In this document: piece after piece, positions 1 to 40,878 of the stretch | How the letters are laid out: each line of letters begins with the position of its first letter | Position numbering within the stretch: position 1 is the first letter of the stretch | Origin: Pyrinomonadaceae bacterium | GTDB lineage: Bacteria > Acidobacteriota > Blastocatellia > Pyrinomonadales > Pyrinomonadaceae | Direction of reading: 5' to 3' | Length of the DNA: 64,000 nt | NCBI GenBank assembly: GCA_036389555.1 | Contig: DASVPS010000281.1 | Coordinates: 7,943 to 71,942 of the forward strand | Notes under the pieces: generated by a model | Told to the model about the DNA's origin: nothing | Databases searched by the model: none | The model's input: the letters and a program-made list of their open reading frames with translations, nothing else | Position numbers and translations under genes: made by a program

Positions 1-87
1 GAAGAGAGCCTCAAACTCGAACTCGCCCGACGCCGCGCACGCACCCCCGAAGAGGCCGCCCGCATCCCGCCACCACCGACGAAGTAA
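1..87 (+). CDS. 3' end of an unidentified CDS entering from upstream (partial)
   Basis: Frame 1 is open from the window edge to TAA at 85-87 (...ARIPPPPTK*). Only 28 codons are visible, so no family can be assigned. Confidence 0.3.
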   Translation, partial: EESLKLELARRRARTPEEAARIPPPPTK

Positions 88-238
88 GGGATGAGGGATG
101 AAGGATGAGGGATGAATGAAGAGAAGTAAATGGTGAATCGTAAATCGTAAATAGAAAGAACTGGTTTTCTCTATTCACGATTTACGATTCACCATTTACG
201 GCTTTTGTTCATCCCTCATCCCTCATCCCTCATCCCTT
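86..238. repeat. Nested heptamer-word hairpin element (outer GGGATGA/TCATCCC arms, inner GTGAATC-GTAAATC/GATTTAC arms)
   Basis: The left half (GGGATGAGGGATGAAGGATGAGGGATG ... GTAAATGGTGAATCGTAAATCGTAAATAG) is the near reverse complement of the right half (CTATTCACGATTTACGATTCACCATTTAC ... TCATCCCTCATCCCTCATCCCTCATCCC). It lies between two convergent CDS ends. Confidence 0.85.
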
Positions 239-537
239 ATTTTCCCTGTGAGCATCAGCGCGACCATTTTGTAGTCGGCGGCGAAAGACCAGAGCGGGTG
301 CTTGAAGGTCGCGGGGCGGTTGTGTTCGATCAGGAAGTGGCTCGCCCACGCCGCCGCGTAGCCGGTGGCGAGTGCGACGGGCAGCCAGCGCCAGCGTCCG
401 GTCGCCACGAACGCGACGGCGAGGCCGGTGCTCGCGAGCGTGCCCGCCGCGTGCAGTCGGCGCGTGCCCGCGCGGCTGTGCTCGGCCAGATAATGCGGCC
501 AAAAGTCTGCGAAAGATTTCATCTCTGCTTGCGTCAT
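223..537 (-). CDS. DUF962 (Mpo1-like) small membrane protein
   Basis: 104-aa ORF. FADFWPHYLAEHS...GYAAAWASHFLIEHNRPATFKHPLWS fits the conserved pattern of short DUF962 proteins. The last codons and the stop lie inside the right arm of the hairpin element. Confidence 0.75.
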   Translation of the reverse strand: MTQAEMKSFADFWPHYLAEHSRAGTRRLHAAGTLASTGLAVAFVATGRWRWLPVALATGYAAAWASHFLIEHNRPATFKHPLWSFAADYKMVALMLTGKIRDEG

Positions 538-671
538 CTCTGGTTTCTCCGTCGCTTCTAAGTCGAAGGATAACTGCCCGCGCCCGACTCACTAACTGAC
601 TCACAACCCGCTTTGCCGCCCGACTCGCCGCCCGGCTCTCGCTCCACTCGCGGCTTGGCATGCTCCGCTGC

Positions 672-1802
672 CTACTCCGCTCCCGCCGAGAACAGACGTT
701 GATATTGATCCGGGCGCGCGGGGTCGAGACGCGCGAGTTGGAGGTTCTCTTCGACGTGCGTGCGGCGGCTCATGCCGACGAGGGCGGTGGTGATGCCGGG
801 TGTGGAGCGCGTGAACTGGATGGCGGTGAGCGCGTCCGAAGCGAGCGAGCCGAGCGGCTCGCGTATGTCTTCGGAGAGTCCGCGCGCCACCTTGCCCTGC
901 AAGATCGACGCGCTCGCGACGACCGTCACACCGAGAGCGCGCGCCGCTTCGAGCAGCGACACGTGCGCGCCCTGAAAAGTTTGGTTCGACAGCGTGAGGG
1001 CTTCGGGCATGGCGAGGTTGAAGGGGAGTTGGATGAAGCGGAAATGATGCCCTTCGCCCCCGGCCTCGCGCGCGAGTTTGAGCATGCGTTCGAGCGAATG
1101 ATAGCCGCGCTCCGCGGGCGCGACGCGGAAGCCGTTCCACGTCGCCACGCCGTAGTGTTTGATCTTGCCTTCGGCGACGCTCTGCTCCAGTTGCCCGAAG
1201 GCTGCGCCGAGGCGAGTCTCGAACTCTGCGGGCGAGACGACGCCGAGTTGCGTCTCAGGGTTGTGTATGTAGTACACGTCAATGGCCGCGAGGCGCAGGT
1301 TGCGGAGCGATTGATCGATCTGGTGCGCGAGATATTTCGGCGTCATGCAATGGCTGCCCGCCGCGATGTCGGACGACGAGGCGACGCCCGTCTTGATGAA
1401 AGTCTCTTCGATGTAGCGGCGCACGCCCTCCTGCCCGGCGGGCGGGTCTGTGTCGAAGGGGATGTAGCCGCCCTTCGTGCAGACGACGACCTCGTCGCGC
1501 GCGGCCGCGCCGCTTTCGAACAACCCCTGCAAGGCCGCGCCGATGGAGCGCTCGCTGCGCTGGAAACGATAGTTGGCCGCCGTGTCAACGACGTTCACGC
1601 CGAGTTCGATGGCGCGCGCGACCGTCTCGGTGTAGCGCGCGTCCGTTTCCGCGTCGGGCTTGCCGAGATACGTGCCGATGCCGAGCGAAGAGAGCCAGAG
1701 ATTTTGTTCCAGCCGGAAATGGTTGACGGCAACCGTCTCCTGCTGCAAACGCTCGCGGTAGCGCGTCGTCCCCTCTGTCGTGGCGTAGCCTGTGTTGGAC
1801 AT
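672..1802 (-). CDS. Aldo/keto reductase family oxidoreductase
   Basis: 376-aa ORF with LGIGTYLG, ELGVNVVDTAANY and SERSIGAAL motifs typical of the AKR fold. The long opposite-strand ORF 660-1940 is a GC shadow. Confidence 0.85.
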   Translation of the reverse strand: MSNTGYATTEGTTRYRERLQQETVAVNHFRLEQNLWLSSLGIGTYLGKPDAETDARYTETVARAIELGVNVVDTAANYRFQRSERSIGAALQGLFESGAAARDEVVVCTKGGYIPFDTDPPAGQEGVRRYIEETFIKTGVASSSDIAAGSHCMTPKYLAHQIDQSLRNLRLAAIDVYYIHNPETQLGVVSPAEFETRLGAAFGQLEQSVAEGKIKHYGVATWNGFRVAPAERGYHSLERMLKLAREAGGEGHHFRFIQLPFNLAMPEALTLSNQTFQGAHVSLLEAARALGVTVVASASILQGKVARGLSEDIREPLGSLASDALTAIQFTRSTPGITTALVGMSRRTHVEENLQLARLDPARPDQYQRLFSAGAE

Positions 1803-1827
1803 GAGTCAAACCTCCGGTTTGCCGTTT

Positions 1828-1914
1828 GCGGATTTCGGATTGCGGAATGCGGATTAAAGAAACGAACCGTCAATCAACCCGTTTTGCTTTCCAATCCGCA
1901 TTCCGCATTCCGCG
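1828..1914. repeat. Heptamer-word hairpin (GCGGA[AT]T x4 / AATCCGC-ATTCCGC x3)
   Basis: GCGGATTTCGGATTGCGGAATGCGGATT ... AATCCGCATTCCGCATTCCGCG. The 3' 15 nt of the left arm pair perfectly with the right arm. It lies immediately upstream of the AKR start. Confidence 0.75.
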
Positions 1915-2167
1915 TTACGTCTTGTCGAGTCTTTCCCTGAAGAACTTGAGCGTGCGTTGCCAGGCTGCGGCGTTGTAGGCTTGGGCGCGTGTGATCGTTC
2001 TTCATGCCATTAGTCTCTCATTATAAATCGGGATAGAGTTGGTCGTGTGGACAGACTATAAGCGTTGCGGGCGCGGCGCGGCAAGAATATTTCAGGGAAG
2101 CGCGGGCGGTATGCTAGGGTTTGAACTCCTGTTCATAGATCAGAATTGTATGAGGAAAGCATTCAAA

Positions 2168-2383
2168 CACCGCAGGCACAGAGGAGAGAAAGGATGAACG
2201 CGGAAGGATGAACGCGGAAGGAGAAGACAGAAGTCAGAATACAGGAATCAGAATTAACGGCGTCTCAGCTTCGCTACTGACTCCTGACTCCTGATTTCTG
2301 CATTCCCTCTTTTCGTTCATCGTTCCGCGTTCCTAATTCATCGTTTCCTCTGTGCCTCTCCGCGTCCTCTGTGTCTGCGGTGG
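2168..2383. repeat. ~215-bp nested imperfect palindrome built from several word modules
   Basis: The outer CACCGCAGGCACAGAGG pairs with CCTCTGTGTCTGCGGTG. AGGATGAACGCGGA x2 (a 14-mer, two heptads) faces CGTTCATCGTTCCGCGTTCC. The inner GTCAGAA-type words face CTGACTCCTGACTCCTGA. Confidence 0.8.
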
Positions 2384-2400
2384 TGAGCGGTTTTAGTTAT

Positions 2401-3990
2401 ATGAGCGACTCACAAGAAAAAGGAATCCTCGGCGAGAGAGAGAGGCTTGAGTTTGACGACGGCGTGCGCCCCTCTTCACTCGACATCTCGGACGAGGCGT
2501 TTGGCGAACTCGCCGCGCGCGCCGTCGAGTTGGTGTCGGACTATTTCCGTAGCGTCGCCGCGTCGCCGGTCTTGACGCAGACGTCTGCGGTCGAACTGGA
2601 CGCGCGGTTCGACGTGCCGCTGCCCGTCGCCGCAGACCCGCTCGATGAAGTGTTCGCGGATTGCCGACGCATCTTCGAGGGCAGCCGCCAGAGCGGACAC
2701 CCGCGCTTCTTCGGCTACGTTGCCTCGCCCTCGACGCCCGTGGGCGCGTTCGCAGACCTCATCGCCTCCGCGGTCAATCAAAACGTTCCCGCATGGCGTT
2801 CATCCCCGGCGGCGACGCACGTCGAACACACGGTCATCCGTTGGCTCGCTGCGCTCACGGGCTACGCGGAAGGCGCGAGCGGGTTGTTGACGAGCGGCGG
2901 TTCGATGGCGAACCTGAACGCGCTCTACGTCGCGCATCGCACGAAGGCGCGCGCCGCGGAGTCAGGCAACGTTGAGACGGGAGCGGGGCGTGATCTCGAC
3001 GTATCGCAGAAGGGTTTGTGGCACGCCGCGCGACCGGCGACCGTTTACGTCTCGGATCAGGCGCACATGTCAATCGCGAAGGCGGCGGACATTCTGGGAT
3101 TGGGGCGCGAGCAGGTGCGCGTCATCGAATCGGACGAGAATTTTCGTATGGACGTACGGCGTCTGCGCGAAAGGATCGAGAGCGACGTGAACGACAACTT
3201 TCAGCCGTGCTGCGTGGTGGCAAGTGCGGGCACGGTCAACACGGGCGCGGTCGATCCGCTCGACGAAATCGCGCGGGTGGCGCGCGAATACGACCTCTGG
3301 TTTCACGTTGACGGCGCATACGGCGCGCTGGCGGCGGTTGATCCTTCAAAGCGCGCTCGCATGGCCGGACTGGCCGCGGCCGATTCCCTCGCGCTCGACC
3401 CGCACAAGTGGCTCTACACGCCGATTGATTGCGGCTGCCTGCTCTTTCGCGATGTGGCACAGGTGCGCGCGGCGTGGGCTGGGAGCGAGGCCGACTACAT
3501 CAAAATTTTTGAAGATACGGAGGCGGAGTCGTTCGCCTTTTTCGACTACGGCGTGGAATTGTCGCGCCGCTTCCGCGCGCTGAAAATCTGGATGCTGCTG
3601 CGCTACTACGGCGCGCAGGCCATCAGCGCCGCGATCACGGAAGACAACGCGCTCGCCGCCTACCTCGCCGAGTGCGTCGAAGCGGCGGAAGATTTTGAAC
3701 TGCTCGCGCCGGTCGAGTTGAGCATCTGCTGTTTTCGTTACGTGCCGCCGGAGGCGCGGTACAGGCTCGCTGCGGCTAACGCCGCGGAGCGTGCGCGCGT
3801 CGAAGAAGAAGTGAACGAATTGAACGAGCGCATCCTGCGCGTGGTGCAGCGCGGCGGGGGCGCTTACGTGTCGAACGCCTCCCTGCGCGGACGGTTCGCC
3901 CTGCGCGCCTGCATCGTCAACTTTCGCACGACGCGCCGCGACATCGAAGCCACGCTCGACATCATCCGCGAGGCGGCGCGCGAGGTGTGA
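2401..3990 (+). CDS. Group II pyridoxal-phosphate-dependent (aromatic-amino-acid-type) decarboxylase
   Basis: Motifs SGGSMANL, HVDGAYGA and LDPHKWLYTPIDCG (PLP-lysine region). I place the start at ATG 2401 (MSDSQEK) because the longer ORF start at 2371 lies inside the upstream palindrome. Confidence 0.85.
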   Translation: MSDSQEKGILGERERLEFDDGVRPSSLDISDEAFGELAARAVELVSDYFRSVAASPVLTQTSAVELDARFDVPLPVAADPLDEVFADCRRIFEGSRQSGHPRFFGYVASPSTPVGAFADLIASAVNQNVPAWRSSPAATHVEHTVIRWLAALTGYAEGASGLLTSGGSMANLNALYVAHRTKARAAESGNVETGAGRDLDVSQKGLWHAARPATVYVSDQAHMSIAKAADILGLGREQVRVIESDENFRMDVRRLRERIESDVNDNFQPCCVVASAGTVNTGAVDPLDEIARVAREYDLWFHVDGAYGALAAVDPSKRARMAGLAAADSLALDPHKWLYTPIDCGCLLFRDVAQVRAAWAGSEADYIKIFEDTEAESFAFFDYGVELSRRFRALKIWMLLRYYGAQAISAAITEDNALAAYLAECVEAAEDFELLAPVELSICCFRYVPPEARYRLAAANAAERARVEEEVNELNERILRVVQRGGGAYVSNASLRGRFALRACIVNFRTTRRDIEATLDIIREAAREV

Positions 3991-4115
3991 AGAGAAAAAT
4001 AAGCTCACGCAAAGGCGCACAGGCGCGAAGAGAAATCACACAGGGTTCAAGCATTCAACAATCTTGAGTTTTCCTTCCAGAGTTTTCTTTTGCGCCTTTG
4101 CGTGAGACTTTCTTC
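3989..4115. repeat. Intergenic inverted repeat with CTCACGCAAAGGCGCA core
   Basis: CTCACGCAAAGGCGCA (4004-4019) is perfectly complementary to TGCGCCTTTGCGTGAG (4091-4106), with purine-rich GAAGAGAAA-type flanks. The same core word recurs at 36490-36561. Confidence 0.75.
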
Positions 4116-4150
4116 AGGGTTAGATTGAATCGTCGGAGAGGTCTGGAACC

Positions 4151-5026: not shown

Positions 5027-5061
5027 AGACCAGTGCTCAGTCGTCAATATTTTTTTGACAG

Positions 5062-7295: not shown

Positions 7296-8711
7296 ATGAG
7301 CGAACCCACGCCCGAACACACCCCGGACAAAGCGACCGTCCTTATCGTTGACGACGATCAGGTTCTACGGCGTCAACTCTTCTGGGCGCTCGACTCGGAG
7401 CACCACGTTCTCGAAGCCGACTCGCGCGCCGCGGCCATCGCGCAGTTGCAGACGGGGCGCGTGCAGGTCGTCCTGTGCGATCTACACCTGCCGCCAGACC
7501 TCGACGGCATCAGCGAAGGTCTCGCCGTCATCGAAGCGGCGCGCGCCGCGCGTCCGAGCATCCCCGTCATCGTCATCACCGGCAGCAACTCGCGGCAGAC
7601 CGCGCTCGAAGCCATTCGCTGCGGCGCATACGGCTTCTTCGAGAAACCTTTCAACGAGGCCGAAGTCACGCACATCGTCCGGCAGGCGGCGCGCGTGCGC
7701 CACCTCGAAGAAGAGAACCTGAAGCTGCGCGCCTCGCTCGAAGCCTGTCGCGGCTTCGGCCGTCTGCTCGGCAGTTCGCCCGCGCTCGAACGCATCATGA
7801 AACAGGCGCGCGCCGTCGCCTCTACGAGCGCCACCGTGCTGCTCGCGGGCGAGAACGGCACGGGCAAGGAAATGCTCGCGCGCGCCGTCCACGAAGAAAG
7901 CCCACGCTCGGAGGGGCCTTTCGTCGCCGTCAGTTGCGCCGCGCTGCCCGAAGAGTTGATCGAGTCGGAACTGTTCGGCCACGAGAAAGGGGCGTTCACC
8001 GGCGCGACGCAGGCGAGGATGGGTCGCTTCGAGTTGGCCGACCGCGGCACGCTCTTTCTCGACGAGATCGGCGAACTCACGCAGGCCGTGCAGGTGAAAC
8101 TCCTGCGCGTCCTGCAGGATCGCACCTTCGAGCGTCTCGGCGGCACGAAAACCCTCACGGTTGACATACGCCTCATCGCCGCCAGCAACCGCGATCTCGA
8201 ACTGGAGGTTGAAGAGGGGCGCTTCCGACGCGATCTCTTCTATCGCTTGAACGTCGTGCCGCTGCACCTGCCCGCCCTGCGCGAGCGGCGCGAAGACCTC
8301 CCCATCCTCGCCGCGCATTTCGCCGCGAAGGCCGCCGTCAAACACGGCCGACCGCCCGCCGCGCTCGACCCCGCGCTGCTCGAAGCCTTGCAGGAGTACG
8401 ACTGGCCGGGCAACGTCCGCGAACTCGAAAACCTGATGGAGCGGCTCGTCGTCTTAACCACCGGCTCGCGCCTCGGCACGGAGTTTCTGCCGGAGAAGAT
8501 GCTGCACATCCGCCGCCCGCCCGCCGCCTCCGATAACGGCCACGACGACGACGAAGCCACGCTCGAAGGCGCGATGCTCGCACTCAAACGCCGCCTCCTC
8601 ATCAACGCCATGCAGGCCGAAGGCGGCAATAAAGCCGCCGCCGCCAAACGCCTCGGCATTAGCCGCTCCTATTTTCATCGCCTCATCGGCGAACTGAACA
8701 TCAGCGCATAA
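7296..8711 (+). CDS. Sigma-54-dependent response regulator (NtrC family enhancer-binding protein)
   Basis: Receiver domain (LIVDDD, CDLHLPPDLDG), AAA+ sigma-54 interaction domain (GENGTGKE, ESELFGHEKGAFTGA) and a C-terminal HTH (AAAKRLGISRSYFHRLI). Confidence 0.9.
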   Translation: MSEPTPEHTPDKATVLIVDDDQVLRRQLFWALDSEHHVLEADSRAAAIAQLQTGRVQVVLCDLHLPPDLDGISEGLAVIEAARAARPSIPVIVITGSNSRQTALEAIRCGAYGFFEKPFNEAEVTHIVRQAARVRHLEEENLKLRASLEACRGFGRLLGSSPALERIMKQARAVASTSATVLLAGENGTGKEMLARAVHEESPRSEGPFVAVSCAALPEELIESELFGHEKGAFTGATQARMGRFELADRGTLFLDEIGELTQAVQVKLLRVLQDRTFERLGGTKTLTVDIRLIAASNRDLELEVEEGRFRRDLFYRLNVVPLHLPALRERREDLPILAAHFAAKAAVKHGRPPAALDPALLEALQEYDWPGNVRELENLMERLVVLTTGSRLGTEFLPEKMLHIRRPPAASDNGHDDDEATLEGAMLALKRRLLINAMQAEGGNKAAAAKRLGISRSYFHRLIGELNISA

Positions 8712-8851
8712 AGGGATGAGGGATGAACAAAAACCGTGAATCGTAAATCGTAAATCGTGAATAGAGAAGAACAGGATTTCTTCTATTCACGATTTACGAT
8801 TTACGATTCACTTTTCTTCATTCATCCCTCATCCCTCATCCCTCATCCCTT
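8711..8851. repeat. Nested heptamer-word hairpin, same architecture as 86-238
   Basis: GGGATGAGGGATGAAC ... CGTGAATCGTAAATCGTAAATCGTGAATAGAG // CTATTCACGATTTACGATTTACGATTCAC ... TCATCCCTCATCCCTCATCCCTCATCCC. It starts on the last base of the TAA stop of the upstream gene. Confidence 0.85.
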
Positions 8852-9530: not shown

Positions 9531-9749
9531 GTGGTGAGTTTTTTGAAAGCGTTATCGAACAATCTTGAAGAGAGACACGACGGTGAACTGACTCCCGCCG
9601 AAATACGCGGGGTGCTGCTTCAACTGGCGCGCAAGAAGATTTCCGAGCACGTCGCGCGCCCGGCCATCGACGCCCTCAACAAGATCATGTGCGACGCCGT
9701 AGCAGCCTCACACTTGCTACGCGCGGCGCAAGGCAAACACGGTCGCTGA
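9531..9749 (+). CDS. Hypothetical small protein (72 aa)
   Basis: Open frame with a GTG start downstream of the receiver gene. The composition is helical and protein-like, but no motif is recognised. Confidence 0.3.
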   Translation: MVSFLKALSNNLEERHDGELTPAEIRGVLLQLARKKISEHVARPAIDALNKIMCDAVAASHLLRAAQGKHGR

Positions 9750-9919
9750 TTGAACACTGTCCTCACGGTCGCTGGCGCGGCGGATTGACTTTCCCCCATC
9801 GCCGCCGCGCCGCAGCGAGTAGCTCTTTGAGAGATTTTACAAGTTCGGCTCTCGTCCCCTTCACGAGAGACCGTTGCGCTCCGCGCATTTACGGTATCCC
9901 TTCTGCCGCCGCCCGGAGC

Positions 9920-9978
9920 CGAAGCCCCCGCTTCCAAATTTGACTCATTCCCAGAGTCGCGGGGGCTTCATCTTTTTT
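9920..9978 (+). terminator. Putative intrinsic terminator (11-bp GC stem, long loop, U-tract)
   Basis: GAAGCCCCCGC (9920-9930) pairs with GCGGGGGCTTC (9958-9968) and is followed by ATCTTTTTTT. The 27-nt loop is long for a canonical terminator. Confidence 0.45.
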
Positions 9979-9980
9979 TG

Positions 9981-10065
9981 GAGAGGTCAGAGGTCAGAGG
10001 TTAGAGGTCAGTAAGAACAGCTTTTGTTTTTACTGACCTCTAACCTCTGACCTCTGACCTCTCTC
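9981..10065. repeat. Heptamer-word hairpin, GAGGTCA family (perfect 34-bp arms)
   Basis: GAGAGGTCAGAGGTCAGAGGTTAGAGGTCAGTAA ... TTACTGACCTCTAACCTCTGACCTCTGACCTCTC. The right arm is the exact reverse complement of the left. Confidence 0.9.
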
Positions 10066-10075
10066 GTTGTATAAT
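10047..10075 (+). promoter_or_regulatory. Possible sigma-70-type promoter (cTGACc-17-TATAAT)
   Basis: TATAAT at 10070-10075 is preceded by TG, and a TGAC-containing hexamer contributed by the hairpin arm sits 17 nt upstream. It lies ~75 nt upstream of ATG 10151. This is pattern match only. Confidence 0.3.
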
Positions 10076-10150
10076 AGTCACATGACAGCGCGCAGTGTCG
10101 GTCGCCCCGTGTGGGTGGGGACGCCCGCCCGCCCGTGCGCCGTGATTATT

Positions 10151-11554: not shown

Positions 11555-11640
11555 TAGAGGTCAGAGGCCGGAGGTCAGAGATCAGTCGAACTACAAAAAC
11601 TGATTTTTACTCACCTCTCACCTCTTACCTCTAGCCTCTA
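11555..11640. repeat. Degenerate GAGGTCA-family heptamer hairpin
   Basis: TAGAGGTCAGAGGCCGGAGGTCAGAGATCAGT ... ACTCACCTCTCACCTCTTACCTCTAGCCTCTA. The 7-nt GAGG-NNN periodicity is conserved in both arms but base pairing is only partial. Confidence 0.65.
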
Positions 11641-11644
11641 TCCC

Positions 11645-17080: not shown

Positions 17081-17140
17081 ACGGCCGCGCGCGCATTCAC
17101 AGGTCAGTTCTCTTACAGCCCGAACCGGGCGAAAATAAAA

Positions 17141-17175
17141 ACTCCCGCTCACGACGAGTGAGCGGGAGTTTTTGT
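17141..17175. terminator. Bidirectional intrinsic terminator between convergent genes
   Basis: ACTCCCGCTCAC-gacga-GTGAGCGGGAGT forms a perfect 12-bp stem. It is flanked by AAAATAAAA upstream and TTTTTGTTTG downstream. Confidence 0.85.
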
Positions 17176-17196
17176 TTGTGGCGAGTTATGAACGGC

Positions 17197-25000: not shown

Positions 25001-26062
25001 CGGTGCGAATTTGCCGTAGCGGTAGGGAACTTCGAGCGTCCTGATTTCCGCGCCCGTCGCCGTGTCCCAGACCTTGACGCTCGTGCCGCCGGAAGCGAGC
25101 GCGAGCAGACGCCCGTCGCGACTGAAGGTGAACGCGCCGGGCGGCTTGTCCTGCGTCAACAGTTGGCGCGGCTTCCCGCCCTTCGCGCCGAAGTCCCACA
25201 ACTCAAGCTTACTCTTGTTGCCCGACGAATAATCGAGCGACGCGACGAGCATCCGGCCATCGGGCGCGAAGGCGAGCGCGGCCTGTCCCTGCGCCTTGAA
25301 ATCGTCGGGCGCGTTTGCCGTTTGTCCCGCCGCGCGCCCCGTCTCCAAATCCCAGAAGACGACGCTGCTCCGGTTGCCACGCGAGAAGTCGCGCGTGAGT
25401 CCGGCGAGTTGTTTGCCGTCGGGGCTGAGCGTAAAGGTGCTGGCAAAGCCGCCCGCCGCCGCGCTCAACAAACTCAACTCCGCCACTTGAATTTCGCTTC
25501 CCATCGCCACGTCCCACGTCCTGATCGCGTCGCCGAGCGAGACGAGGCGCGCGGCGTCGGGCGTGAAGGCCAGAAAGAAAACGCCCACGCCGGCCGAGAG
25601 TCCGCCGGACGGCGCGACGAGCGTTTTCAGTTCGCGCCCGGTCTGGACGTTCCAAATCTTGATCGCATTGTCGCGCCCGCCCGCCGCGAGCAGACGCCCG
25701 TCGCGACTGAAGGCCACGGCCGACACGCCCGTCAGGGAGGCGAGACCGAAGCCGCTCGACGCGCCGCCCGAGAGCGCGAGCGAACGCAGTTCGCGCCCGG
25801 TCGCCGCTTCCCACAACTTGATTTCGTTGCTGTTGAATGTCCACGTCGCCAGCAGGCGCGCGTCCGGGCTAAAGGTCATCCCCGTCGCGCCGAAAAGGGC
25901 ATAGCCCGATTGCAGCACGAGTTCGGGGCGCACGCCTTGTTTGTTTTGCGCCGCCTGACCGGAAACTGATGGGTGGAAACAAAGCGAGGCGAACAGGGTG
26001 GCGGCAACTAATTTGAAGAGGTAACGCGATGCGTCGCGCGCGGGCTGAACGTTCTGTTTCAT
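22079..26062 (-). CDS. Secreted multi-WD40-repeat protein with C-terminal caspase-like (peptidase C14) domain
   Basis: N-terminal signal peptide and more than 15 repeats of the FSPDGRLLA...IKLWD type. The C-terminal part has YILAVGVNAY, VVVYFAGHGTA (catalytic His) and LVIDACNSGQA (catalytic Cys). Confidence 0.85.
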   Translation of the reverse strand: MKQNVQPARDASRYLFKLVAATLFASLCFHPSVSGQAAQNKQGVRPELVLQSGYALFGATGMTFSPDARLLATWTFNSNEIKLWEAATGRELRSLALSGGASSGFGLASLTGVSAVAFSRDGRLLAAGGRDNAIKIWNVQTGRELKTLVAPSGGLSAGVGVFFLAFTPDAARLVSLGDAIRTWDVAMGSEIQVAELSLLSAAAGGFASTFTLSPDGKQLAGLTRDFSRGNRSSVVFWDLETGRAAGQTANAPDDFKAQGQAALAFAPDGRMLVASLDYSSGNKSKLELWDFGAKGGKPRQLLTQDKPPGAFTFSRDGRLLALASGGTSVKVWDTATGAEIRTLEVPYRYGKFAPQGGVTALAFSADGRTLAASSFDTDITLWDTATGQRAQRLTGRINMAYQVAFSADGSRLFAGGRTIWDLANGRGLRVSTPAETPFNLISRDGRLLASMQTNGSQVDLYDAADGRRLHRLSPQEEAATTVVNFSPDGRLLATAYRAETRFQKGTTAAPENRQQGINAASDTDQKEMQKKAQEALKDAMKGSKKSGMPQVNVIINGATPGGSTTNVSTGLGSQVKLWDTATGREAHTLNIPRSNPFMPGAVHSFTFSADGRRLAVTNFNDPTVTIWDTSTGQPTGMLGGFAAAQNPYAGTGGLSAVMPGNFGGMGGSSKVNVVAFSADGKLLLTGGAETKSNFDQAAMMRAMQAAALDLKKARRTNPEELMKELYKDLKMTTTGLVKLWDAGTGRELRTLAGHTSEVKAVAFSTDGRTVAAAATDNTIKLWEAATGRELRTLKGHTGSINSLAFSPDSRLLASAGDDGSTMLWDATEGRQLATLVSLFDGADWLVVTPDGLFDGSPFAWNQILWRYDEDTFNVAPIEWFFNEFFYPGLLSDLTSGKRPVAAQDFAQKDRRQPEVKILVADAAAAPHANAAFATRNLKLKIEVREAAADASHPAGSGARDVRLFRNGTLVKAWRGDVLAQGQSGTTLEVVIPVVAGENRLTAYGFNRDNVKSKDNSLLVTGADSLKRAGVVYILAVGVNAYANSQYDLKYAVADAREFAEEVKRQQTRLGRYERIEVASLYDAQATKANILAGLSKIAAQAQPEDQVVVYFAGHGTAQANKFYLIPHDLGYAGSRTRLDPAGLKLMLSQSISDEELEAAFESVSAAQMMLVIDACNSGQALEAEEKRRGPMNSKGLAQLAYEKGMYILTAAQSFQAAQEASEVGHGLLTYALVEEGLKGSAADAEPRNGEILVREWFDYATTRVPAMQLQKLKQARDVGLALSFIEVAGEDERGLNLTRMATQRPRVFYRRELEAQPLIVARTAAKQ

Positions 26063-26080: not shown

Positions 26081-26178
26081 AGAACGATGAAGGTGGAGCG
26101 TTGAACGCGGAGCGTTGAACGAAAGAGAACTGTTTTTACTTAATCATTCATTGTTCATCGTTCATCGTATCCATTCAC
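26081..26178. repeat. Imperfect word-based hairpin (GATGAACG/CGTTCATC family)
   Basis: GAACGATGAAGGTGGAGCGTTGAACGCGGAGCGTTGAACG ... TTCATTGTTCATCGTTCATCG. The arms share words with 2168-2383 but pairing is only partial. Confidence 0.5.
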
Positions 26179-27597: not shown

Positions 27598-28311
27598 TTA
27601 TTGGAAACGCTCTGCCACAGGAACATCAGCCTCTTCCAAACCCTTGGCGAATAATTCATAATCAGTGAAATCTTTGATGATGTGCTTCGCCCCTGCTTGA
27701 CGCAGCTTCGCTGCGGCGTCTCCATCACCTATACCTAAAAACGCGAAACCGAGACGGCCGGCAACTCGAACGTCCCATACTCCATCCCCTACGCTCACAA
27801 TCTTTTCAAATTCGCTTTGCCGATACTGCTCTAAAGCCTTCCGCGCCGCTACCTGTAAGATTTCCTCTCTCGACAAACCATCATCGGCATAAGCAGCGGC
27901 CATCCCATCGACTTCAACTCCAGCAGCCTTCAACTTCAATAAAGCCGAGCCGCGCCAACTGCCCGTAGCAATGGCAACAGCCCAGGTTGCATCTTGTTTC
28001 AATCTTTCCAGCGCCACTGAAGCTCCGGCTATTTCAGTAAAATTCAAGGCGTTGGCACGGTATTCCACATTCAATAAATCTACAAAGCGACTTTTGAATT
28101 TACTCAACTCTTTTTCTACAGGGTTACGCCTAAACCTTTCTTGAAATATGAACTGCGTAATCCCGGAATCGGTGGTGTGAGGATACTCAGCCCAATCCGT
28201 GCTGATTTCGGTAATACCGTGCGACTCTTCGAGGGCTTTTACAAAGCAGGCATCATCAATGTCATTCGTGTTCGTCAGCGTGCCATCGATGTCGAAAATT
28301 ACCAGTTTCAT
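27598..28311 (-). CDS. HAD-superfamily hydrolase
   Basis: MKLVIFDIDGTLT (DxDxT) and a downstream SVGDGVWD motif. GC is visibly lower than in neighbouring genes. Confidence 0.8.
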   Translation of the reverse strand: MKLVIFDIDGTLTNTNDIDDACFVKALEESHGITEISTDWAEYPHTTDSGITQFIFQERFRRNPVEKELSKFKSRFVDLLNVEYRANALNFTEIAGASVALERLKQDATWAVAIATGSWRGSALLKLKAAGVEVDGMAAAYADDGLSREEILQVAARKALEQYRQSEFEKIVSVGDGVWDVRVAGRLGFAFLGIGDGDAAAKLRQAGAKHIIKDFTDYELFAKGLEEADVPVAERFQ

Positions 28312-28439
28312 CTTGCACCCGTCCAACCTCATCCAAGAATATGACGCATAACGCCCGGCATCACCCGCGCCCCCACCCAACTATCATGAGAGGCACGCCG
28401 AAGGGGCGTCGGGTGCATGCCGTTGTTAGGCGGTGGCCG

Positions 28440-28982
28440 TTAGGAACTACCAGCCGTTTCCAAATGCGGTGCTAGAATTACCTCAACTTCCCGCTGAAAC
28501 TGACCCCATTCTTTCGTGTTTTGAGTTACACCTTCAAGTAAGTTACGGATTTGAGCCGCCGGTTCATAGCCAAATTGGTCGCACTCATCATAGATAGCTC
28601 TGCGAGCTTCTCTCGCTTCTGATTTCGATAGCTGTAAGACCCGCAATGCAAAGTGCGGGCGTTCACGACCTTTTATCATGTGCTCAGGCTCAGGTATGCA
28701 GCCATATTTGAACAAGACCTCACTTAAACCTTTGTGTCTTGTGTCCAGAATCAGGTCAACGTCATCCCAATTCTGTTTTTGTATTGAACCATGAAGGTAC
28801 GCGACAACCTTTGTCGAGTCGTGTAACGCTGCTCTCAAGCCACCCTTTAATTCTTCAACCACATCTGAGGGAATCTTGTCTTCGGCTCTATTCAGGGCTT
28901 CTACAATATCTACAATCTCATCAAGTGTGTTCATGGCCTTTTCCTGAAGGTAGCCGTCAATTTTAGATTCATTCGCGCTCAT
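28440..28982 (-). CDS. Hypothetical protein (180 aa), low GC
   Basis: Clean ORF with protein-like composition. LHGSIQKQNWDDVDLILD faintly resembles a GS...DxD nucleotidyltransferase motif, but I cannot support a family call. Confidence 0.5.
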   Translation of the reverse strand: MSANESKIDGYLQEKAMNTLDEIVDIVEALNRAEDKIPSDVVEELKGGLRAALHDSTKVVAYLHGSIQKQNWDDVDLILDTRHKGLSEVLFKYGCIPEPEHMIKGRERPHFALRVLQLSKSEAREARRAIYDECDQFGYEPAAQIRNLLEGVTQNTKEWGQFQREVEVILAPHLETAGSS

Positions 28983-29023: not shown

Positions 29024-29898
29024 TCATTGTGCCGCACGAAGTTTGCGCGCGGCGAGTTTGAGCACTTCCTGCACCTGCGCGTCCCAATAAGGCCAGGAGT
29101 GCGAGCCGGGCAGTTGGCGATACTCGTGTGGGATTTTACGGCGGAGCAGGAGTTCCGAGAGCGCGCGGTTCGAGTTGATGAGAAAGTCTTCCGTGCCGCA
29201 GTCGAAGTAGATGAAGGGAAGCGCGGGGAAGCGTTCCGGCGGCAGGTCGGAGAAGAGTTTGAAGAGGTCGTTGGCGGCGCGCGTGGGGCTGTCCATTGCG
29301 CCGTAGGTGCGCGCGACGGAGGGGCGGACGAAGGAGATCAGGCCGGGATCGTTTGCGTCCCAGGAGGCCGCGCTGAACGCTCCGCTTAAAGACGCCGCGA
29401 GGATGAAGGTCTGCGGGTGTTTGACGCCGAACTTCAACGCGCCATAGCCGCCCATCGAAAGCCCTGCAACGGCACGCGCGTCGCGCGTCGAGAGCGCACG
29501 GTAACGCCGCTCCACGTCGGGGATCAACTCTTCGAGTATGTAAGTCTCAAACTTATCGGTCGGCACGGTCGCGCTATCCGTGTACCAACCGTCGCGGCCT
29601 TCGGGCGTGACGATGATGAAGCGATATGCGGCGGCGTGCGCGGCGAGGCGCGCGCGGTTGGAAATCCAGTCGCCCGCGCCGCCGCCAAGCCCGTGGAGCA
29701 AGTAGATGACCGGATACTTAACGGCGCGCGACTCCGGCGCGTCGTAGAGCGGCGGCAGCACGACGTTGTAAGGCAGCACCTTGCCGACGAGCTTGCTCTC
29801 GAACCTGACCGCCTCAACGCGCGCCGCGGGCTGTCGCTCTGCCTGCGCCTGACATGAAACAACCAGCAGCAGCGCGAAGCAGAGAGAGGCGACGCGCG
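29024..29898 (-). CDS. Secreted esterase (esterase D / putative-esterase alpha/beta hydrolase family)
   Basis: YPVIYLLHGLGGGAGDW and GLSMGGYGA (GxSxG). The proposed TTG start at 29898 gives the signal peptide MTGARVASLCFALLLVVSCQAQA. The longer ORF to 30139 overlaps the next gene and reads through a DNA tandem repeat. Confidence 0.75.
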
Positions 29899-29972
29899 CC
29901 CCCGTCAACGCGAAACGCGCCCCCGTCAACGCGAAACGCGCTCGCGTCAACGGAGAACACGCCCGCGTCAAC
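29889..29972. repeat. Four tandem 21-bp repeats with CGTCAAC (GTTGACG) core
   Basis: CCCCCGTCAACGCGAAACGCG occurs twice exactly (29889-29930). Two degenerate copies follow: CTCGCGTCAACGGAGAACACG and CCCGCGTCAACCTGAAACGCG. Confidence 0.85.
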
Positions 29973-30050
29973 CTGAAACGCGCGTGCGGTGGCCGTAAAA
30001 CTTTTTTCGTTCGCACTATTTCCACACTCCCATGCTCGCGCAACGCCGAG

Positions 30051-30437
30051 TCAGGCATTGCCGTGACCTTCTTGGATGTGCCGGTCGAGCATCGCCGCGA
30101 TCCGGTCGAGCCGCGCATCGGTCGCAGCCCCGCGGGCATTCGCCTCGGCTATTCTTTCGTCGGTGAGTGCTTGCGATTGAGCGATCCTTTCGTCGGTGCG
30201 CGTCTGCGATTGAGCGATCCTTTCATCGGTGCGTGCTTGCGACGCAGCGATTATCTCATCGGTGCGCGCCTGCGTCGCCGCCAGCCGTTCAAAGCTGCTC
30301 GTCACGATCTGGATGAACTCGCTCTGCGTCTCCGCTTGAAGCTGCACTATCCGGTTCGTCTCCGCGATCTGCGCCTCAAGATTAGCTTGGCTCTGTAAAA
30401 GAAACTCAATTGCGCGTTCCATCTCTTCGCCGGTCAT
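30051..30437 (-). CDS. Coiled-coil protein with 11-residue (33-bp) tandem repeats
   Basis: 128-aa ORF. AATQARTDEII / AASQARTDERI / AQSQTRTDERI / AQSQALTDERI are encoded by 33-bp DNA repeats at 30140-30271. Confidence 0.6.
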   Translation of the reverse strand: MTGEEMERAIEFLLQSQANLEAQIAETNRIVQLQAETQSEFIQIVTSSFERLAATQARTDEIIAASQARTDERIAQSQTRTDERIAQSQALTDERIAEANARGAATDARLDRIAAMLDRHIQEGHGNA

Positions 30438-32421: not shown

Positions 32422-32439
32422 GCGCGACTGCCGGGGCGG

Positions 32440-32959: not shown

Positions 32960-33742
32960 ATGGCACTCAGCCCGCGCGCACGCATCCTGCTTCTGGCGTC
33001 TTCAATTCTGTTGGGCTTGACCGCCCTCGTCTGGTATCTCAGCAGCAAGCCGCGCTCGACGCCCGTCACGCCAATCTCTCAGCCGCCCGCGACGAGCGAA
33101 CTGACTCCTCCCGCGAACAACACTGTCGGCACGGCCGCTCAGCCCGGCGTGCCGCCGCAGACTACGGAGAGCGCGTCGCCGACGCCCGACGCTTCTGCGT
33201 CCGCGCAAGGCTCTCCGTCTCCGGCCATCACGCCGACGCCCTTTGTTAACAGCACGCCGCAAACGTCGCCCACGCCGCACGTCTCTGCCGACGCACACTC
33301 GACGAGTTCTGCGGCGGGTCTCCTGATCCCGGTCGCGGGCGTCCGTCCCGAACAACTGCAAGACACCTACACGCAATCGCGCAACGAAGGGCGCACGCAT
33401 AACGCCATAGACATCATGGCCGCGCGCAACACGCCCGTCGTTGCAGCTACAGACGGCCGCGTCATCAAACTCTTCCAGAGCGAGCGCGGCGGCATCACCC
33501 TCTATCAACTCGGCACAGACAACCGCACCGTCTACTACTATGCGCACCTCGAACGCTACGCCGACGGCATCGCCGAAAATCACTTCGCGCGCCGCGGCGA
33601 ACTGCTCGGCTACGTCGGCGACAGCGGCAACGCCGGGAAGGATAATTGCCACCTCCATTTCTCCATCTGGCTCGTCACAGACCCCAAACGCTTCTGGGAT
33701 GGCGAGAACATCAACCCCTACCCGCTGCTGACGAAACGATAA
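32960..33742 (+). CDS. M23 family metallopeptidase with N-terminal membrane anchor
   Basis: HNAIDIMA, GDSGNAG and CHLHFSIW (HxH) motifs. The N-terminal hydrophobic segment is ILLLASSILLGLTALVWYL. Start at ATG 32960. Confidence 0.85.
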   Translation: MALSPRARILLLASSILLGLTALVWYLSSKPRSTPVTPISQPPATSELTPPANNTVGTAAQPGVPPQTTESASPTPDASASAQGSPSPAITPTPFVNSTPQTSPTPHVSADAHSTSSAAGLLIPVAGVRPEQLQDTYTQSRNEGRTHNAIDIMAARNTPVVAATDGRVIKLFQSERGGITLYQLGTDNRTVYYYAHLERYADGIAENHFARRGELLGYVGDSGNAGKDNCHLHFSIWLVTDPKRFWDGENINPYPLLTKR

Positions 33743-33749
33743 GCAGACC

Positions 33750-33858
33750 GGAGTCAGAATTCAGAAGTCAGAAATCAGAAGAAAGAGCAATGGCTTTGAT
33801 TCTGACTCCCGTATTCTGAATTCTGTTTTCTCTCTTTCATCGTTTCTTTTTCATCCCT
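33750..33858. repeat. Word-based imperfect hairpin (GTCAGAA family) with trailing TTCATCG/TCATCCC words
   Basis: GGAGTCAGAATTCAGAAGTCAGAAATCAGAAG ... TTGATTCTGACTCCCGTATTCTGAATTCTG, followed by unpaired TTCATCG and TCATCCC words. Confidence 0.65.
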
Positions 33859-35501: not shown

Positions 35502-35504
35502 ACT

Positions 35505-36428: not shown

Positions 36429-36489
36429 GCGTTTTCAGCTTCGCATCAGCGCGAGAAGATTGAACGCCAGCCACGCTAAAAGTTGAAAT

Positions 36490-36561
36490 CTTTTCTTTGC
36501 GCCTCCAGCGCCTTTGCGTGAGATTAATTTCTCGCAAAGGCGCTGGAGGCGCAAAGAAAAG
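36490..36561. repeat. Perfect 29-bp-arm palindrome sharing the GCCTTTGCG(T)GAG word with 3989-4115
   Basis: CTTTTCTTTGCGCCTCCAGCGCCTTTGCG-(14 nt)-CGCAAAGGCGCTGGAGGCGCAAAGAAAAG. It lies just downstream of the hutH stop. Confidence 0.9.
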
Positions 36562-36576
36562 CATAAGGTAAACGGT

Positions 36577-38076: not shown

Positions 38077-38085
38077 GTAAAAACG

Positions 38086-38160
38086 GTAAATCGTGAATCG
38101 TAAATCGTGAATAGAGAAATCAGTTTACTTTCTATTCACGATTTACGATTCACGATTTAC
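38086..38160. repeat. Heptamer-word hairpin, GTAAATC/GTGAATC family only
   Basis: GTAAATCGTGAATCGTAAATCGTGAATAGAGAAA ... TTTCTATTCACGATTTACGATTCACGATTTAC. It is identical in kind to the inner module of 86-238 and 8711-8851. Confidence 0.9.
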
Positions 38161-38166
38161 TAATCT

Positions 38167-39243: not shown

Positions 39244-40195
39244 CGCTTTGCTTGGATGATAACACGCGCTCTGGTTTAAGCGTGATAGTTCCGGCGCGCA
39301 TTCCCGCGAGGAAGTAGAGCGCGCTGTAAGATTCGAACCCGCCCCAACGCTTCGCGGCGAACGCGCGAATTTCGCGCTCGTTCATCGTCGTGCCCCCCTG
39401 GTAATACTTGACGACGACGCCGCGCAAGAACAGGTCTGCGGCGGGGAACACGTCGGGGCGACCGAAATGCAGCATCAAAACCCACTCCGCCGTCCAACGC
39501 CCGATGCCGCGCAAACTTGAGAGGCGCGCGATGACCGTCTCGTTGTCTTCTCGCTCAAGCGACGCCGAACTGAGTTCGCCCGCGGCGCACGCGCGCCCGA
39601 CTTCGACGATGCACGCCGCCTTCGCATTCGACAGGCCGAGCGCGCGCAACTCTTCGACGCTCGCCCGCGCCACCCGTTCGGCACGCGGAAAGGCAAAGTA
39701 AGTTTCGCCGTCCACCTCCAGACGTTCGCCGTAGCGCTCGACGACGCGACGCCTGAACGTGATCGCCACGCTCGTCGCGATCTGCTGCAAGAGGATCGAA
39801 GTGACCAGAGCCTCGAACAGCGAAGGCCAGCGGGGCAGGTGCAGCCCGTGATGTTCAACTTCGAGCCGCCGCATCACGGGGTCGCGCGCCAAACGCGCGC
39901 GCCAGAGCGCCAGGTCGTGTTCGAGGCTGAACATGCCGCGCACCACGCGCGCCGCTTCGTCCAGAATGTGCTGGGCGACGAATTGCTCCGGCGCGAGTTT
40001 GAGCCGGACTGAGACGCGAGCGCCCATGGCGTGCGGCTCGACGGAGAGCAGGAACAGCCGCTCCCCGAAATGAATCGCGCGTGCATAGCGGCCACGGGTG
40101 AAAGTGTCCACGGCCTCCACATCGGTGAAGCGCAGAAAGCGCGCGGTGGACGCAAAATCGAAGGGCGCGCGGGCGCGGAGGACGAGTTCGGACAT
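39185..40195 (-). CDS. alkA: DNA-3-methyladenine glycosylase II family (HhH-GPD)
   Basis: HhH-GPD region LSSLRGIGRWTAEWVLMLHFGRPDVFPAADL with the preceding helical bundle (LLQQIATSVAITFRRRV). Confidence 0.7.
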   Translation of the reverse strand: MSELVLRARAPFDFASTARFLRFTDVEAVDTFTRGRYARAIHFGERLFLLSVEPHAMGARVSVRLKLAPEQFVAQHILDEAARVVRGMFSLEHDLALWRARLARDPVMRRLEVEHHGLHLPRWPSLFEALVTSILLQQIATSVAITFRRRVVERYGERLEVDGETYFAFPRAERVARASVEELRALGLSNAKAACIVEVGRACAAGELSSASLEREDNETVIARLSSLRGIGRWTAEWVLMLHFGRPDVFPAADLFLRGVVVKYYQGGTTMNEREIRAFAAKRWGGFESYSALYFLAGMRAGTITLKPERVLSSKQSDAKPTHRTQRKTTDRHDET

Positions 40196-40313
40196 GCCGC
40201 GAAGTGTCGCAGAAACGGGCGCAGAGCGTCAAAGTCTGTTCGCTTGACAGCGGGCGCGGGCGTGCCTATAGTCAGTTTTTGTCTGCCGTTGATTGAAAGC
40301 GTCTGTGCGCGAT

Positions 40314-40808
40314 ATGTTTGAGCCTGAGACGGAGGAAGACGCCGACGCGCGCTGGATGCGCGTTGCCCTGGAAGCGGCGCGCGCCGCCGGACAGGAGCGC
40401 GACGAAGTGCCCATCGGCGCGTGTGTCGTCAGTTCCGCCGGGGAGCTTTTGGCCGTCGCGGGCAACCGCACGCGCACCGACTGCGACCCGACCGCGCACG
40501 CCGAAATCATCGCCCTGCGCGCGGCGGCACGACAAGTTGAAAATTACAGGCTCACGGGCGCGGTCGTCTACTCGACGATTGAGCCGTGCGCAATGTGCGC
40601 GGGCGCACTCGTGCAGGCGCGGGTGCGGCGTCTCGTCTACGGCGCGCGCGACGTACGCACGGGCGCGGTTGAATCGGTCTTCCGCATCTGCGACGCCAGT
40701 TCTTTGAATCATCGTATTGAATTAACGGCGGGCGTGCTCGACACGGAATGCCGCGAAGTGATGCAAGCATTCTTCCGCGCTCGCAGGAAAGCAGAGGTCA
40801 GAGGTTAG
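40314..40808 (+). CDS. tadA: tRNA adenosine(34) deaminase
   Basis: CDA-fold zinc motifs HAEIIALR and PCAMCAGAL. Start taken at ATG 40314 (ORF opens at TTG 40293). The last five codons and the stop lie in the hairpin arm. Confidence 0.9.
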   Translation: MFEPETEEDADARWMRVALEAARAAGQERDEVPIGACVVSSAGELLAVAGNRTRTDCDPTAHAEIIALRAAARQVENYRLTGAVVYSTIEPCAMCAGALVQARVRRLVYGARDVRTGAVESVFRICDASSLNHRIELTAGVLDTECREVMQAFFRARRKAEVRG

Positions 40809-40878
40809 AGGTCAGAGGTTAGTTAAAGACACACGAGTGATTTTTTAACTAACCTCTGACCTCCGACCTCTAACCTCT
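40793..40878. repeat. Heptamer-word hairpin, GAGGTCA/GAGGTTA family
   Basis: AGAGGTCAGAGGTTAGAGGTCAGAGGTTAGTTAAA ... TTTAACTAACCTCTGACCTCCGACCTCTAACCTCT. It overlaps the tadA 3' end and ends 10 nt before the tRNA. Confidence 0.9.

Follow-up and report, generated by a model that had tools for sequence, protein, structure and literature searches.

Palindromic heptad-repeat families beside gene 3′ ends in a Pyrinomonadaceae genome

The stretch of DNA analysed here, a window of 64,000 nt (W) from a metagenome-assembled genome (MAG) of Pyrinomonadaceae (Acidobacteriota), has a GC content of 61% and carries ordinary chromosomal genes. In an initial annotation, twelve of its intergenic sites, named below by their first coordinate (Table 1), were described as long inverted repeats whose arms are mostly tandem arrays of 7-nt words (heptads). 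Inverted repeats are present at 12 of these 12 coordinates. The heptad construction holds at 10 of them: Tandem Repeats Finder (TRF) reported period 7, or 14 (two heptads), in both arms of sites 86, 1828, 2168, 8711, 9981, 11555, 26081, 33750, 38086 and 40793, and the 14-mer previously described as two heptads, GGATGAACGCGGAA, was recovered at 2190-2222 (2.4 copies, 100% matches). It fails at 3989 and 36490, which have in common an 8-nt word, CTTTGCGC/GCGCAAAG.

For comparison we used a Joint Genome Institute (JGI) metagenome contig of the same organism (L133) and two sets of syntenic relatives, one around the histidine kinase gene (L119-L123) and one around hutH (L134-L141; HutH identity 77-92%). 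The closest HutH homologues all carry a Pyrinomonadaceae annotation, and an exact look-up of the sigma-54 regulator protein gave no match. The hutH tree, built by the unweighted pair group method with arithmetic mean (UPGMA), was (L140,(L139,((L136,L137),(L138,(L141,(L134,(W,L135))))))).

Within W, heptad arrays occur above compositional chance. We counted 18 period-7 arrays of at least 18 nt, as compared to a mean of 0.48 (maximum 2) in 200 dinucleotide shuffles, and 6 strict pairs of an array and its reverse-complement array, as compared to 0 in the shuffles; periods 8-12 yielded 0-1 arrays. RNA folding z-scores ranged from -5 to -17 at 10 of the 12 sites, whereas 26081 and 33750, as delimited in the initial annotation, are degenerate or fold weakly. 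The twelve sites are also AT-richer than the window, with a GC content of 32-52%. An Rfam scan at gathering thresholds matched a tRNA only and none of the hairpins, and a permissive scan of 9700-10100 returned just sub-threshold look-alikes of miRNA precursors, that is generic long hairpins. These observations support a real class of structured repeats sharing recurrent word families.

The anatomy of the elements was observed directly. Around a family-specific core palindrome of ~30 nt (for instance GTGAATAGA-loop-TCTATTCAC or GGTYAGTWAAGA-loop-TTTTWACTRACC), the 7-nt stem word nearest the core stands in 2-5 tandem copies. In W the words are GGGATGA (86, 8711), GTRAATC (inner parts of 86 and 8711, and 38086), GAGGTYA (9981, 11555, 40793), GCGGAWT (1828), GTCAGAA/TTCAGAA (inner part of 2168, and 33750) and the double heptad GGATGAACGCGGAA (2168, with a degenerate relative at 26081). 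The nesting described earlier, GGGATGA outside and GTAAATC-type words inside, was seen at 86 and 8711, as was the unequal copy number between arms, GGGATGA being present in 2 vs 4 units at 8711. The arms that had been called perfect at 9981 and 36490 proved near-perfect (39 nt, 97%, and 36 nt, 94%, respectively); those of 38086 match over 30 nt at 100%.

Placement relative to genes was assessed over 233.7 kb from 9 genomes, with automatic gene calls in the 8 relatives and our own annotation of W. This DNA is 87% coding, and 90 of its 95 heptad arrays are intergenic or at gene edges. Among gaps of at least 30 nt, arrays occupy 38/121 tandem, 6/16 convergent and only 1/21 divergent ones (tandem and convergent vs divergent, Fisher p = 0.008, with orthologous, non-independent sites pooled). 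Arrays in tandem gaps lie at a median of 5.5 nt from the upstream stop codon and 120 nt from the next start, 33 of the 38 being nearer to the stop. In W itself, 9 of the 12 sites are within 15 nt of an upstream stop, counting one stop that belongs to a short unverified open reading frame (ORF) of ~30 aa, 1915-2005(-), which adjoins the 1828-1914 hairpin and may be a gene remnant. The copies at 86 (stop at 223), 3989, 8711 and 40793 overlap or supply a stop codon. The initial annotation was right that the elements abut stops or fill gaps. Its further statement that they do so in every orientation goes too far, since the elements track gene 3′ ends and the sole copy of W in a divergent gap is 2168-2383; 40793-40878, which overlaps the tadA stop, does not lie in such a gap. 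Downstream of tadA, relatives have tRNA-Ser(CGA) and then tRNA-Ser(GGA), and in L135, L140 and L141 a GGGATGA hairpin fills the 105-nt spacer between the two tRNAs, stopping 5-7 nt short of each. Most simply read, the elements are parts of transcripts at cistron boundaries, where we infer co-transcription from spacing.

Such a position raises the question of terminators. Ordinary intrinsic terminators, with stems lengthened by 7-nt slippage and nothing dispersed or mobile about them, would also appear as stable hairpins just past stop codons (here at the median distance given above), would avoid divergent gaps and would include copies between convergent genes. T-runs are clear at some sites, and T4-5 tracts are conserved across genomes after the hairpins of the DUF2270->hutH and M23->YkuD spacers. 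They are however missing at other sites, with a mean of just 3.6 T in the 10 nt past the stem, and the stems are long, AT-rich and periodic. Moreover, 12 of the 38 tandem-gap arrays reach to within 25 nt of the following start codon as well, as before hutH (ATG 9 nt past the stem in W, a geometry kept in relatives) and the Lon-N gene (4 nt). Together with the three tRNA-tRNA copies, these fill their spacers and therefore leave no place where a promoter could lie. Words and cores are shared between unrelated loci, word variants are genome-wide, and site 9981 lies directly past a canonical terminator. Consensus promoter and terminator scans, which we graded uninformative, gave no excess of terminator-like sites. 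Since a third of the copies fill spacers to the next start or tRNA and U-tracts are mostly weak, the heptad hairpins do not read as classical intrinsic terminators; the simple terminator role considered in the initial annotation does not fit copies inside operons and tRNA clusters, and we regard lengthened ordinary terminators as quite unlikely.

Several features near this question were noted in passing. At 17133-17177, between a convergent beta-lactamase-family gene and gyrA, there is a canonical terminator of the bidirectional type (A-tract, GC stem, T-tract), with the C-rich arm first, the reverse of the heptad palindromes. A noncoding stretch of ~230 nt, 9750-9980 (+), has a canonical intrinsic terminator at its end (stem GAAGCCCCCGC/GCGGGGGCTTC, then T7); it has no Rfam match and is nearly identical in L119 and L120, whereas the neighbouring hairpin arms diverge. 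We regard it as a candidate small RNA. A sigma-70-like promoter is predicted at 10047-10075 (+) (CTGACC, 17-nt spacer, TATAAT; 10/12 matches), its -35 hexamer within the 3′ arm of the 9981 hairpin, and TATAAT with its flank is kept in L119 and L120. As a general role for the arms, promoter activity was rejected, as the 7-nt spacing does not generally yield a proper -35/-10 distance; this is the single predicted case. GAGG/CCTC words resemble Shine-Dalgarno and anti-Shine-Dalgarno sequences, a likeness inapplicable to some families.

Orthologous spacers show hairpins that stay in place while their content turns over rapidly, a pattern to which the spacer between the two tRNA-Ser genes also belongs. 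Between DUF2270 and hutH a heptad hairpin is found in 8 of the 9 genomes; the words differ, yet both arms are consistent in each. They are GTRAATC in W, GTGAATC/GTCAATC in L134, GTGACGG in L135, GTAAATG in L136, GGTCAAT in L137, outer GTGACRA with inner GTRAATC in L138, outer GTGACGA with inner GTGAATG in L141 and, with unequal arms, GTGATAG in L139, while the most distant genome, L140, has a direct GGGATGA array without hairpin. The same-spacer hairpin persists across genomes down to 85% HutH identity. At the M23->YkuD spacer, the outer stem and a T5 run are conserved among W and L134-L137 and the interior changes: GTCAGAA in W, GTGGTYA in L134, GGGATGA in L135 and GTAAATG in both L136 and L137. 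The spacer between the sigma-54 response regulator gene and the next response regulator gene keeps its outer GGGATGA arms in L119 and L120, and the inner GTRAATC module is present in W alone. Between the metallophosphoesterase and Lon-N genes, co-varying hairpins occur in W (GAGGTCA) and L119 (GAGGCCG), with 300 unrelated nt in L120. Finally, the convergent hydrolase/YkuD gap measures 3-5 nt in W, L134 and L135 and holds a heptad hairpin of ~90 nt in L136 and L137.

Three expectations of the initial annotation can be judged from these comparisons. Copy number does vary between relatives, in steps of 7 nt. Change in one arm is indeed compensated in its partner, as each word variant of the DUF2270->hutH spacer (GTRAATC, GTGACGG, GTAAATG, GGTCAAT) is matched by its complement. 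A mobile or copying component is likewise supported, whole modules of ~90 nt being nested or missing at orthologous sites.

The GTRAATC family illustrates this last point. Its copies have in common the core GTGAATAGA-loop-TCTATTCAC and AAAARCC/GGYTTTT flanks, and the three paralogues of W resemble each other as much as they resemble the orthologues in L134 and L138 (82% mean column identity). In relatives the core is confined to the hutH spacer, where the module stands alone in W and L134 and within GTGACRA arms in L138 and L141. In W it is found in addition at the apex of two GGGATGA hairpins, and the L119 and L120 hairpins orthologous to one of these two nested loci, that of the sigma-54 response regulator spacer, lack it. 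That the core occupies two extra GGGATGA apices in W alone suggests that it was copied in the W lineage. Word variants also sort by genome: AATCGT occurs at 5 loci (W, L134, L138) and AATGGT at 7 loci (L136, L137, L141), never together in one genome.

Most copies have 0-3 arm mismatches in 20-39 bp. Arm mismatches gave no G:U wobble strand bias (23 sense vs 22 antisense). A covariation alignment was confined to the GAGGTYA family, the arms of the hutH-site hairpins not being alignable base to base. In the 8 GAGGTYA copies aligned, which come from 7 genomes, 25 of the 36 pairs never vary; nearly all variation falls at the Y position, where CG<->UA swaps occur, and the loops are unalignable. Judged from this alignment, sequence constraint in GAGGTYA arms appears to go beyond structure. 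It is plausible that a DNA-level symmetrising process keeps the arms matched.

The same data bear on whether the elements do anything at all. They could be a functionless mutational by-product, in which heptamers grow by slippage and palindrome-correcting template switching acts in tolerated spacer DNA, the products surviving only by being nearly harmless. An excess of heptamer simple-sequence repeats is described for many bacteria, with polymerase slippage as the proposed cause (PMC4692102, citing Mrazek 2007); direct-only arrays occur in many phyla, and the unequal arms, the degenerate copies and the lack of a G:U strand bias also speak for this reading. The hairpin at one spacer is nevertheless retained in 8 of 9 genomes while all else in it changes, the arms are far more conserved than the loops, and the elements crowd against stop codons rather than scattering across the gap. 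In addition, identical cores are found at separate loci, which local slippage cannot produce. We therefore hold a by-product without function to be unlikely.

A further regularity concerns the order of the arms. The purine-rich arm comes first in 31 of 32 heptad palindromes, and in 35 of 40 independent pattern-derived loci. The idea that this bias (26/27) reflects polarity relative to transcription was discarded: whichever strand is read, an inverted repeat presents the same 5′ arm, and purine-first is therefore an intrinsic rule, not a strand-specific one. Stop codons have the form T-purine-purine and 7 is not divisible by 3; as a consequence, the arm reached first, from whichever side, closes a mean of 2.28 of the 3 reading frames, as compared to 1.66 for letter-shuffled first arms and 0.97 for second arms. 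TGA is found in 34% of words as compared to 20% of shuffled words. This is only suggestive, but frame closure could shield the hairpin from ribosomes or render insertions near gene ends harmless. Alternatively, it could result from shared descent of the words.

Hairpins made of 8-nt words are likewise kept, expanded, degenerate or replaced, depending on the genome. Besides 3989 and 36490, the CTTTGCGC/GCGCAAAG family occurs at L134 11528-11587 and, expanded, at L121 1322-1590. The pyrimidine-rich arm is first in 4 of its 5 occurrences, the exception being W 3989-4115, which is purine-arm-first.

Taken together, these results lead us to favour, with modest confidence, the following account: the elements form dispersed palindromic heptad-repeat families at cistron 3′ boundaries, which grow by 7-nt slippage, owe their symmetry and spread to DNA-level copying and probably act as RNA hairpins. 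Replication slippage would gain or lose 7-nt units, and a DNA-level correction, for which intrastrand template switching and gene conversion between arms are candidates, would keep the two arms complementary. Copies of whole modules would be placed at the tips of hairpins already present, and inner or outer ones lost, which would give nested composites and genome-specific word variants. Transcribed at cistron boundaries, the elements would form very stable hairpins that might block 3′ exonucleases, offer RNase III processing sites or act as leaky terminators. Such a function could be proposed by analogy with the hairpins of repetitive extragenic palindromic sequences (REP) and bacterial interspersed mosaic elements (BIME), and with the cyanobacterial hairpins of short tandemly repeated repetitive sequences (STRR).

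Several points weigh against this account. Transcription, processing and termination of the heptad hairpins are all steps that we infer. The null result for G:U wobble means that there is no positive sign of RNA-level selection, and the element could therefore be a purely DNA-level one; the conserved T4-5 tracts, for their part, speak for termination. No target-site duplication was seen between the filled and empty hydrolase/YkuD sites, the single clean polymorphism. Among the called genes of ~230 kb we noticed no transposase, REP-associated tyrosine transposase (RAYT) or other mobilising gene, no dedicated search having been made and a single-copy gene being easily missed. The placement census covers only loci, 233.7 kb in all, and because it pools orthologous sites its effective sample is ~10-15 independent spacers.

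Another reading makes the hairpin secondary and the arms arrays of sites for a sequence-specific protein, one unit per 7 nt, for which a cold-shock-domain RNA-binding protein or a nucleoid protein would be candidates. The strict 7-nt period agrees with it, as cold-shock proteins bind ~7 nt per domain (PMC4679880). It would also account for a word conservation that exceeds pairing needs and for genome-wide variant shifts, which are expected if words co-evolve with a binding factor. On the other hand, a single genome holds six or more unrelated words, words swap at one spacer, and arrays in this lineage are almost always accompanied by their complement. We consider protein-binding arrays highly doubtful.

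Heptamer tandem repeats have been known in cyanobacteria since 1990, and their general excess in bacteria since 2007. The STRR of cyanobacteria occur in filamentous species, with words such as CCCCAAT, and a 1997 study by Vioque reportedly found that STRR also lengthen helix P12 of RNase P RNA. In the hupS-hupL spacer, and likewise upstream of hoxW, STRR heptamers make hairpins, for which transcript stability or translational coupling was suggested (PMC2670836). Tandem 7-nt units at many intergenic loci, and an intercistronic hairpin with an inverted array, are found here as well. The host, in contrast, is an acidobacterium, the words are others, arrays are nearly always complement-paired and families are nested. 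In Xanthomonas campestris, 186 GGGAATC arrays have been described, with 70 cases of convergent pairs, that is inverted repeats (Rehm et al. 2015, PMC4692102), and position and type are kept between species while length varies (PMC4692102). As there, the present elements are AT-richer intergenic arrays in a GC-rich genome, with convergent pairs kept in place at varying length, and GGGATGA of W is also a G3+N4 word. One dominant G-rich word, read as quadruplex-forming, characterises Xanthomonas, as opposed to at least six words here, of which GGGATGA alone has the G3 run that would let 4 or more units form a G-quadruplex, and GAGGTYA, GTRAATC, GCGGAWT and GTCAGAA lack it; for Xanthomonas, neither nested modules nor core palindromes have been described.

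In proteobacteria, REP and REP doublets forming hairpins (REPIN) end in an unpaired GTAG or CGTC tag and come with a RAYT gene as partner; like BIME, they are supposed to act in mRNA stabilisation or termination (PMC3733652, PMC3116915). Like them, the heptad elements are extragenic palindromes at gene 3′ ends or inside operons, in genome-specific families and mosaic arrangement. Their arms, however, are tandem heptads of 25-45 bp and not a 20-40-nt imperfect tagged palindrome, and we found no common GTAG or CGTC tag in the flanks of 28 hairpins inspected. Miniature inverted-repeat transposable elements (MITE), such as Correia elements and the cyanobacterial Nezha, are similarly short, non-coding, polymorphic for presence and inserted into other repeats. 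They differ in that no target-site duplication was seen at the hydrolase/YkuD site and that neither terminal inverted repeats apart from the body itself nor a parent insertion sequence (IS), for which no search was made, are known for the heptad elements. The small dispersed repeats of Nostoc treated by Elhai et al. in 2008 are reportedly also short and non-coding, with presence/absence polymorphism and insertion inside other repeats. TAACTGA heptamers of Beggiatoaceae and cyanobacteria occur as 169 direct sets vs 1 inverted, mostly just upstream of start codons (PMC4679880). They too are abundant, intergenic, common to several phyla and carry stop codons in the unit, but they are direct repeats before starts, whereas the repeats of W are inverted and follow stop codons. 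Integron attC sites were rejected, as the genes around the elements are housekeeping genes that lie on either strand and keep their synteny, and not an array of promoterless cassette ORFs beside intI; the RYYYAAC/GTTRRRY ends of attC were not looked for. CRISPR and the triplex BoxC/PIT elements (PMC4666352) were set aside on context or sequence.

The elements had been thought possibly lineage-specific. This did not hold, as heptad arrays and heptad hairpins exist in many phyla, and the literature already has them from cyanobacteria and Xanthomonas (PMC2670836, PMC4692102). An exact scan for GAGGTYA x3 in 185,579 species genomes gave at least 118 loci in many phyla. Among the matches listed, hairpin pairs make up 22 of 39 in Acidobacteriota (12 of 18 in Pyrinomonadaceae) as compared to 14 of 79 in other phyla (p = 4e-5), where the phyla with pairs include Planctomycetota, Verrucomicrobiota, Nitrospirota, Desulfobacterota, Bacteroidota and Cyanobacteria; direct arrays alone are found at many of the other listed loci. 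Our literature search met no report of heptad hairpins for Acidobacteria. This kind of repeat has thus been described before. What is new is the lineage and, to the extent checked, the multi-family nesting and the turnover pattern. Loci of 8 kb dense in many-word heptad arrays were also seen, in a Binatia MAG (L095, 26 arrays), an Akkermansiaceae MAG (L008, 15), L005 (12) and L046 (11), and words such as GCGGATT and GTCAGAA recur across phyla in them.

A bolder proposal would be an undescribed copy-and-insert process, either a hairpin-specific single-strand DNA enzyme or a template-switch pathway of replication, that puts whole heptad palindromes into resident apical loops, keeps arms perfect, operates in several phyla and is the true cause of the bacterial heptamer excess. 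We would call this rather improbable.

The Pyrinomonadaceae offer many syntenic MAGs at graded divergence, so that a single spacer can be followed. The constraints gained, namely concerted arm evolution, genome-wide word shifts, module nesting and loss, stop-adjacent placement and the purine-arm-first rule, make slippage-only, mobile-element, RNA-element and protein-binding-array ideas testable. In practical terms, roughly one in three sizable non-divergent spacers holds such elements, which supply or overlap stop codons; they will confuse predictors of terminators and small RNAs, and short-read assemblies likely break at them. Coordinates and local context are given in Table 1.

Table 1. Hairpin sites of the window, with RNA folding z-scores, neighbouring genes and state in relatives.
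Feature	Coordinates	Strand	Folding z	Context
Nested palindrome between convergent genes	86-238		-16.9	Upstream stop TAA (83-85) 1 nt off; Mpo1-like gene stop (223-225, -) within right arm
Outer arms of site 86, GGGATGA x4	87-115 / 209-237
Inner module of site 86, GTRAATC family, core GTAAATAGA..TCTATTCAC	126-200
GCGGAWT-arm hairpin	1828-1914		-5.5	26 nt upstream of the start of an aldo-keto reductase gene (-)
Composite 216-nt hairpin in divergent gap	2168-2383		-10.5	Layers: non-periodic outer stem; GGATGAACGCGGAA x2.4 (2190-2222 / 2313-2345); GTCAGAA-type inner heptads (2222-2254 / 2277-2294)
8-nt-word hairpin CTCACGCAAAGGCGC / GCGCCTTTGCGTGAG, not heptads	3989-4115		-5.0	Begins at stop codon of pyridoxal phosphate (PLP)-decarboxylase gene; at the orthologous spacer kept in L120 and L121 (expanded), missing in L123
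Nested palindrome, outer GGGATGA arms	8711-8851		-15.2	Begins at stop of sigma-54 response regulator gene; inner GTRAATC-family module 8731-8811
GAGGTYA x4 hairpin	9981-10065		-13.6	After T-run of intrinsic terminator; position and loop kept in L119 and L120, arms more degenerate there
Degenerate GAGGTYA-family hairpin	11555-11640		-5.3	Spans metallophosphoesterase gene stop to just short of the Lon-N gene start
Weak degenerate member, GGAGCGTTGAACGC x2 vs ATCGTTC x3.7	26081-26178		-1.9; 8/200 shuffles fold equally well
GTCAGAA/TTCAGAA hairpin	33733-33858		-2.6 as delimited from 33750	7 nt past M23 peptidase gene stop; in the outer stem the last M23 codons (GAAACGAT) pair with downstream ATCGTTTC; T5 run next
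Near-perfect 8-nt-word palindrome (CTTTGCGCC...)	36490-36561		-14.2	15 nt past hutH stop; kept in L134 and L137, degenerate in L135, 99-aa ORF instead in L136
GTRAATC-family hairpin, perfect arms	38086-38160		-13.2	Fills DUF2270->hutH spacer: 6 nt past stop, then CGTTTTTAC, then hutH ATG
GAGGTYA x4 hairpin over tadA stop	40793-40878		-12.0	Contains stop (40806-40808) of tadA (40293-40808, +); 9 nt upstream of tRNA-Ser(CGA) 40888-40977; orthologues alignable in L134, L136, L137 and L141

Beyond the last site, W departs from its relatives. These have tRNA-Ser(CGA), tRNA-Ser(GGA), yggT and dnaX in this order, and W and L133 are without the second tRNA. Instead, the stretch 40979-60510 of W holds a 26-nt direct repeat (40979-41031). 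It also includes a MAP3K_TRAF_bd/TPR-S gene, 41279-42622 (-), with a weak PADLOC match to a TIR effector, and four ORFs of 1247, 132, 2395 and 1962 aa without Pfam or PADLOC match. It is probably a genomic island at tRNA-Ser with giant proteins of no assigned family.

Two genes at 27598-28982 (-), one coding for a HAD-family hydrolase and one without Pfam match, have a GC content at third codon positions (GC3) of 0.49 and 0.43 as compared to ~0.8 in their neighbours, and look recently acquired by horizontal transfer. A 33-nt tandem repeat (3.7 copies) at 30154-30274, just downstream of the hutU stop and between hutU and an esterase gene, and a 21-nt repeat (4.2 copies) at 29895-29983, inside the esterase gene, are unrelated to the heptad elements. 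Finally, 22079-26062 (-) codes for a protein of 1327 aa with several WD40 beta-propellers and a C-terminal caspase (Peptidase_C14) domain.

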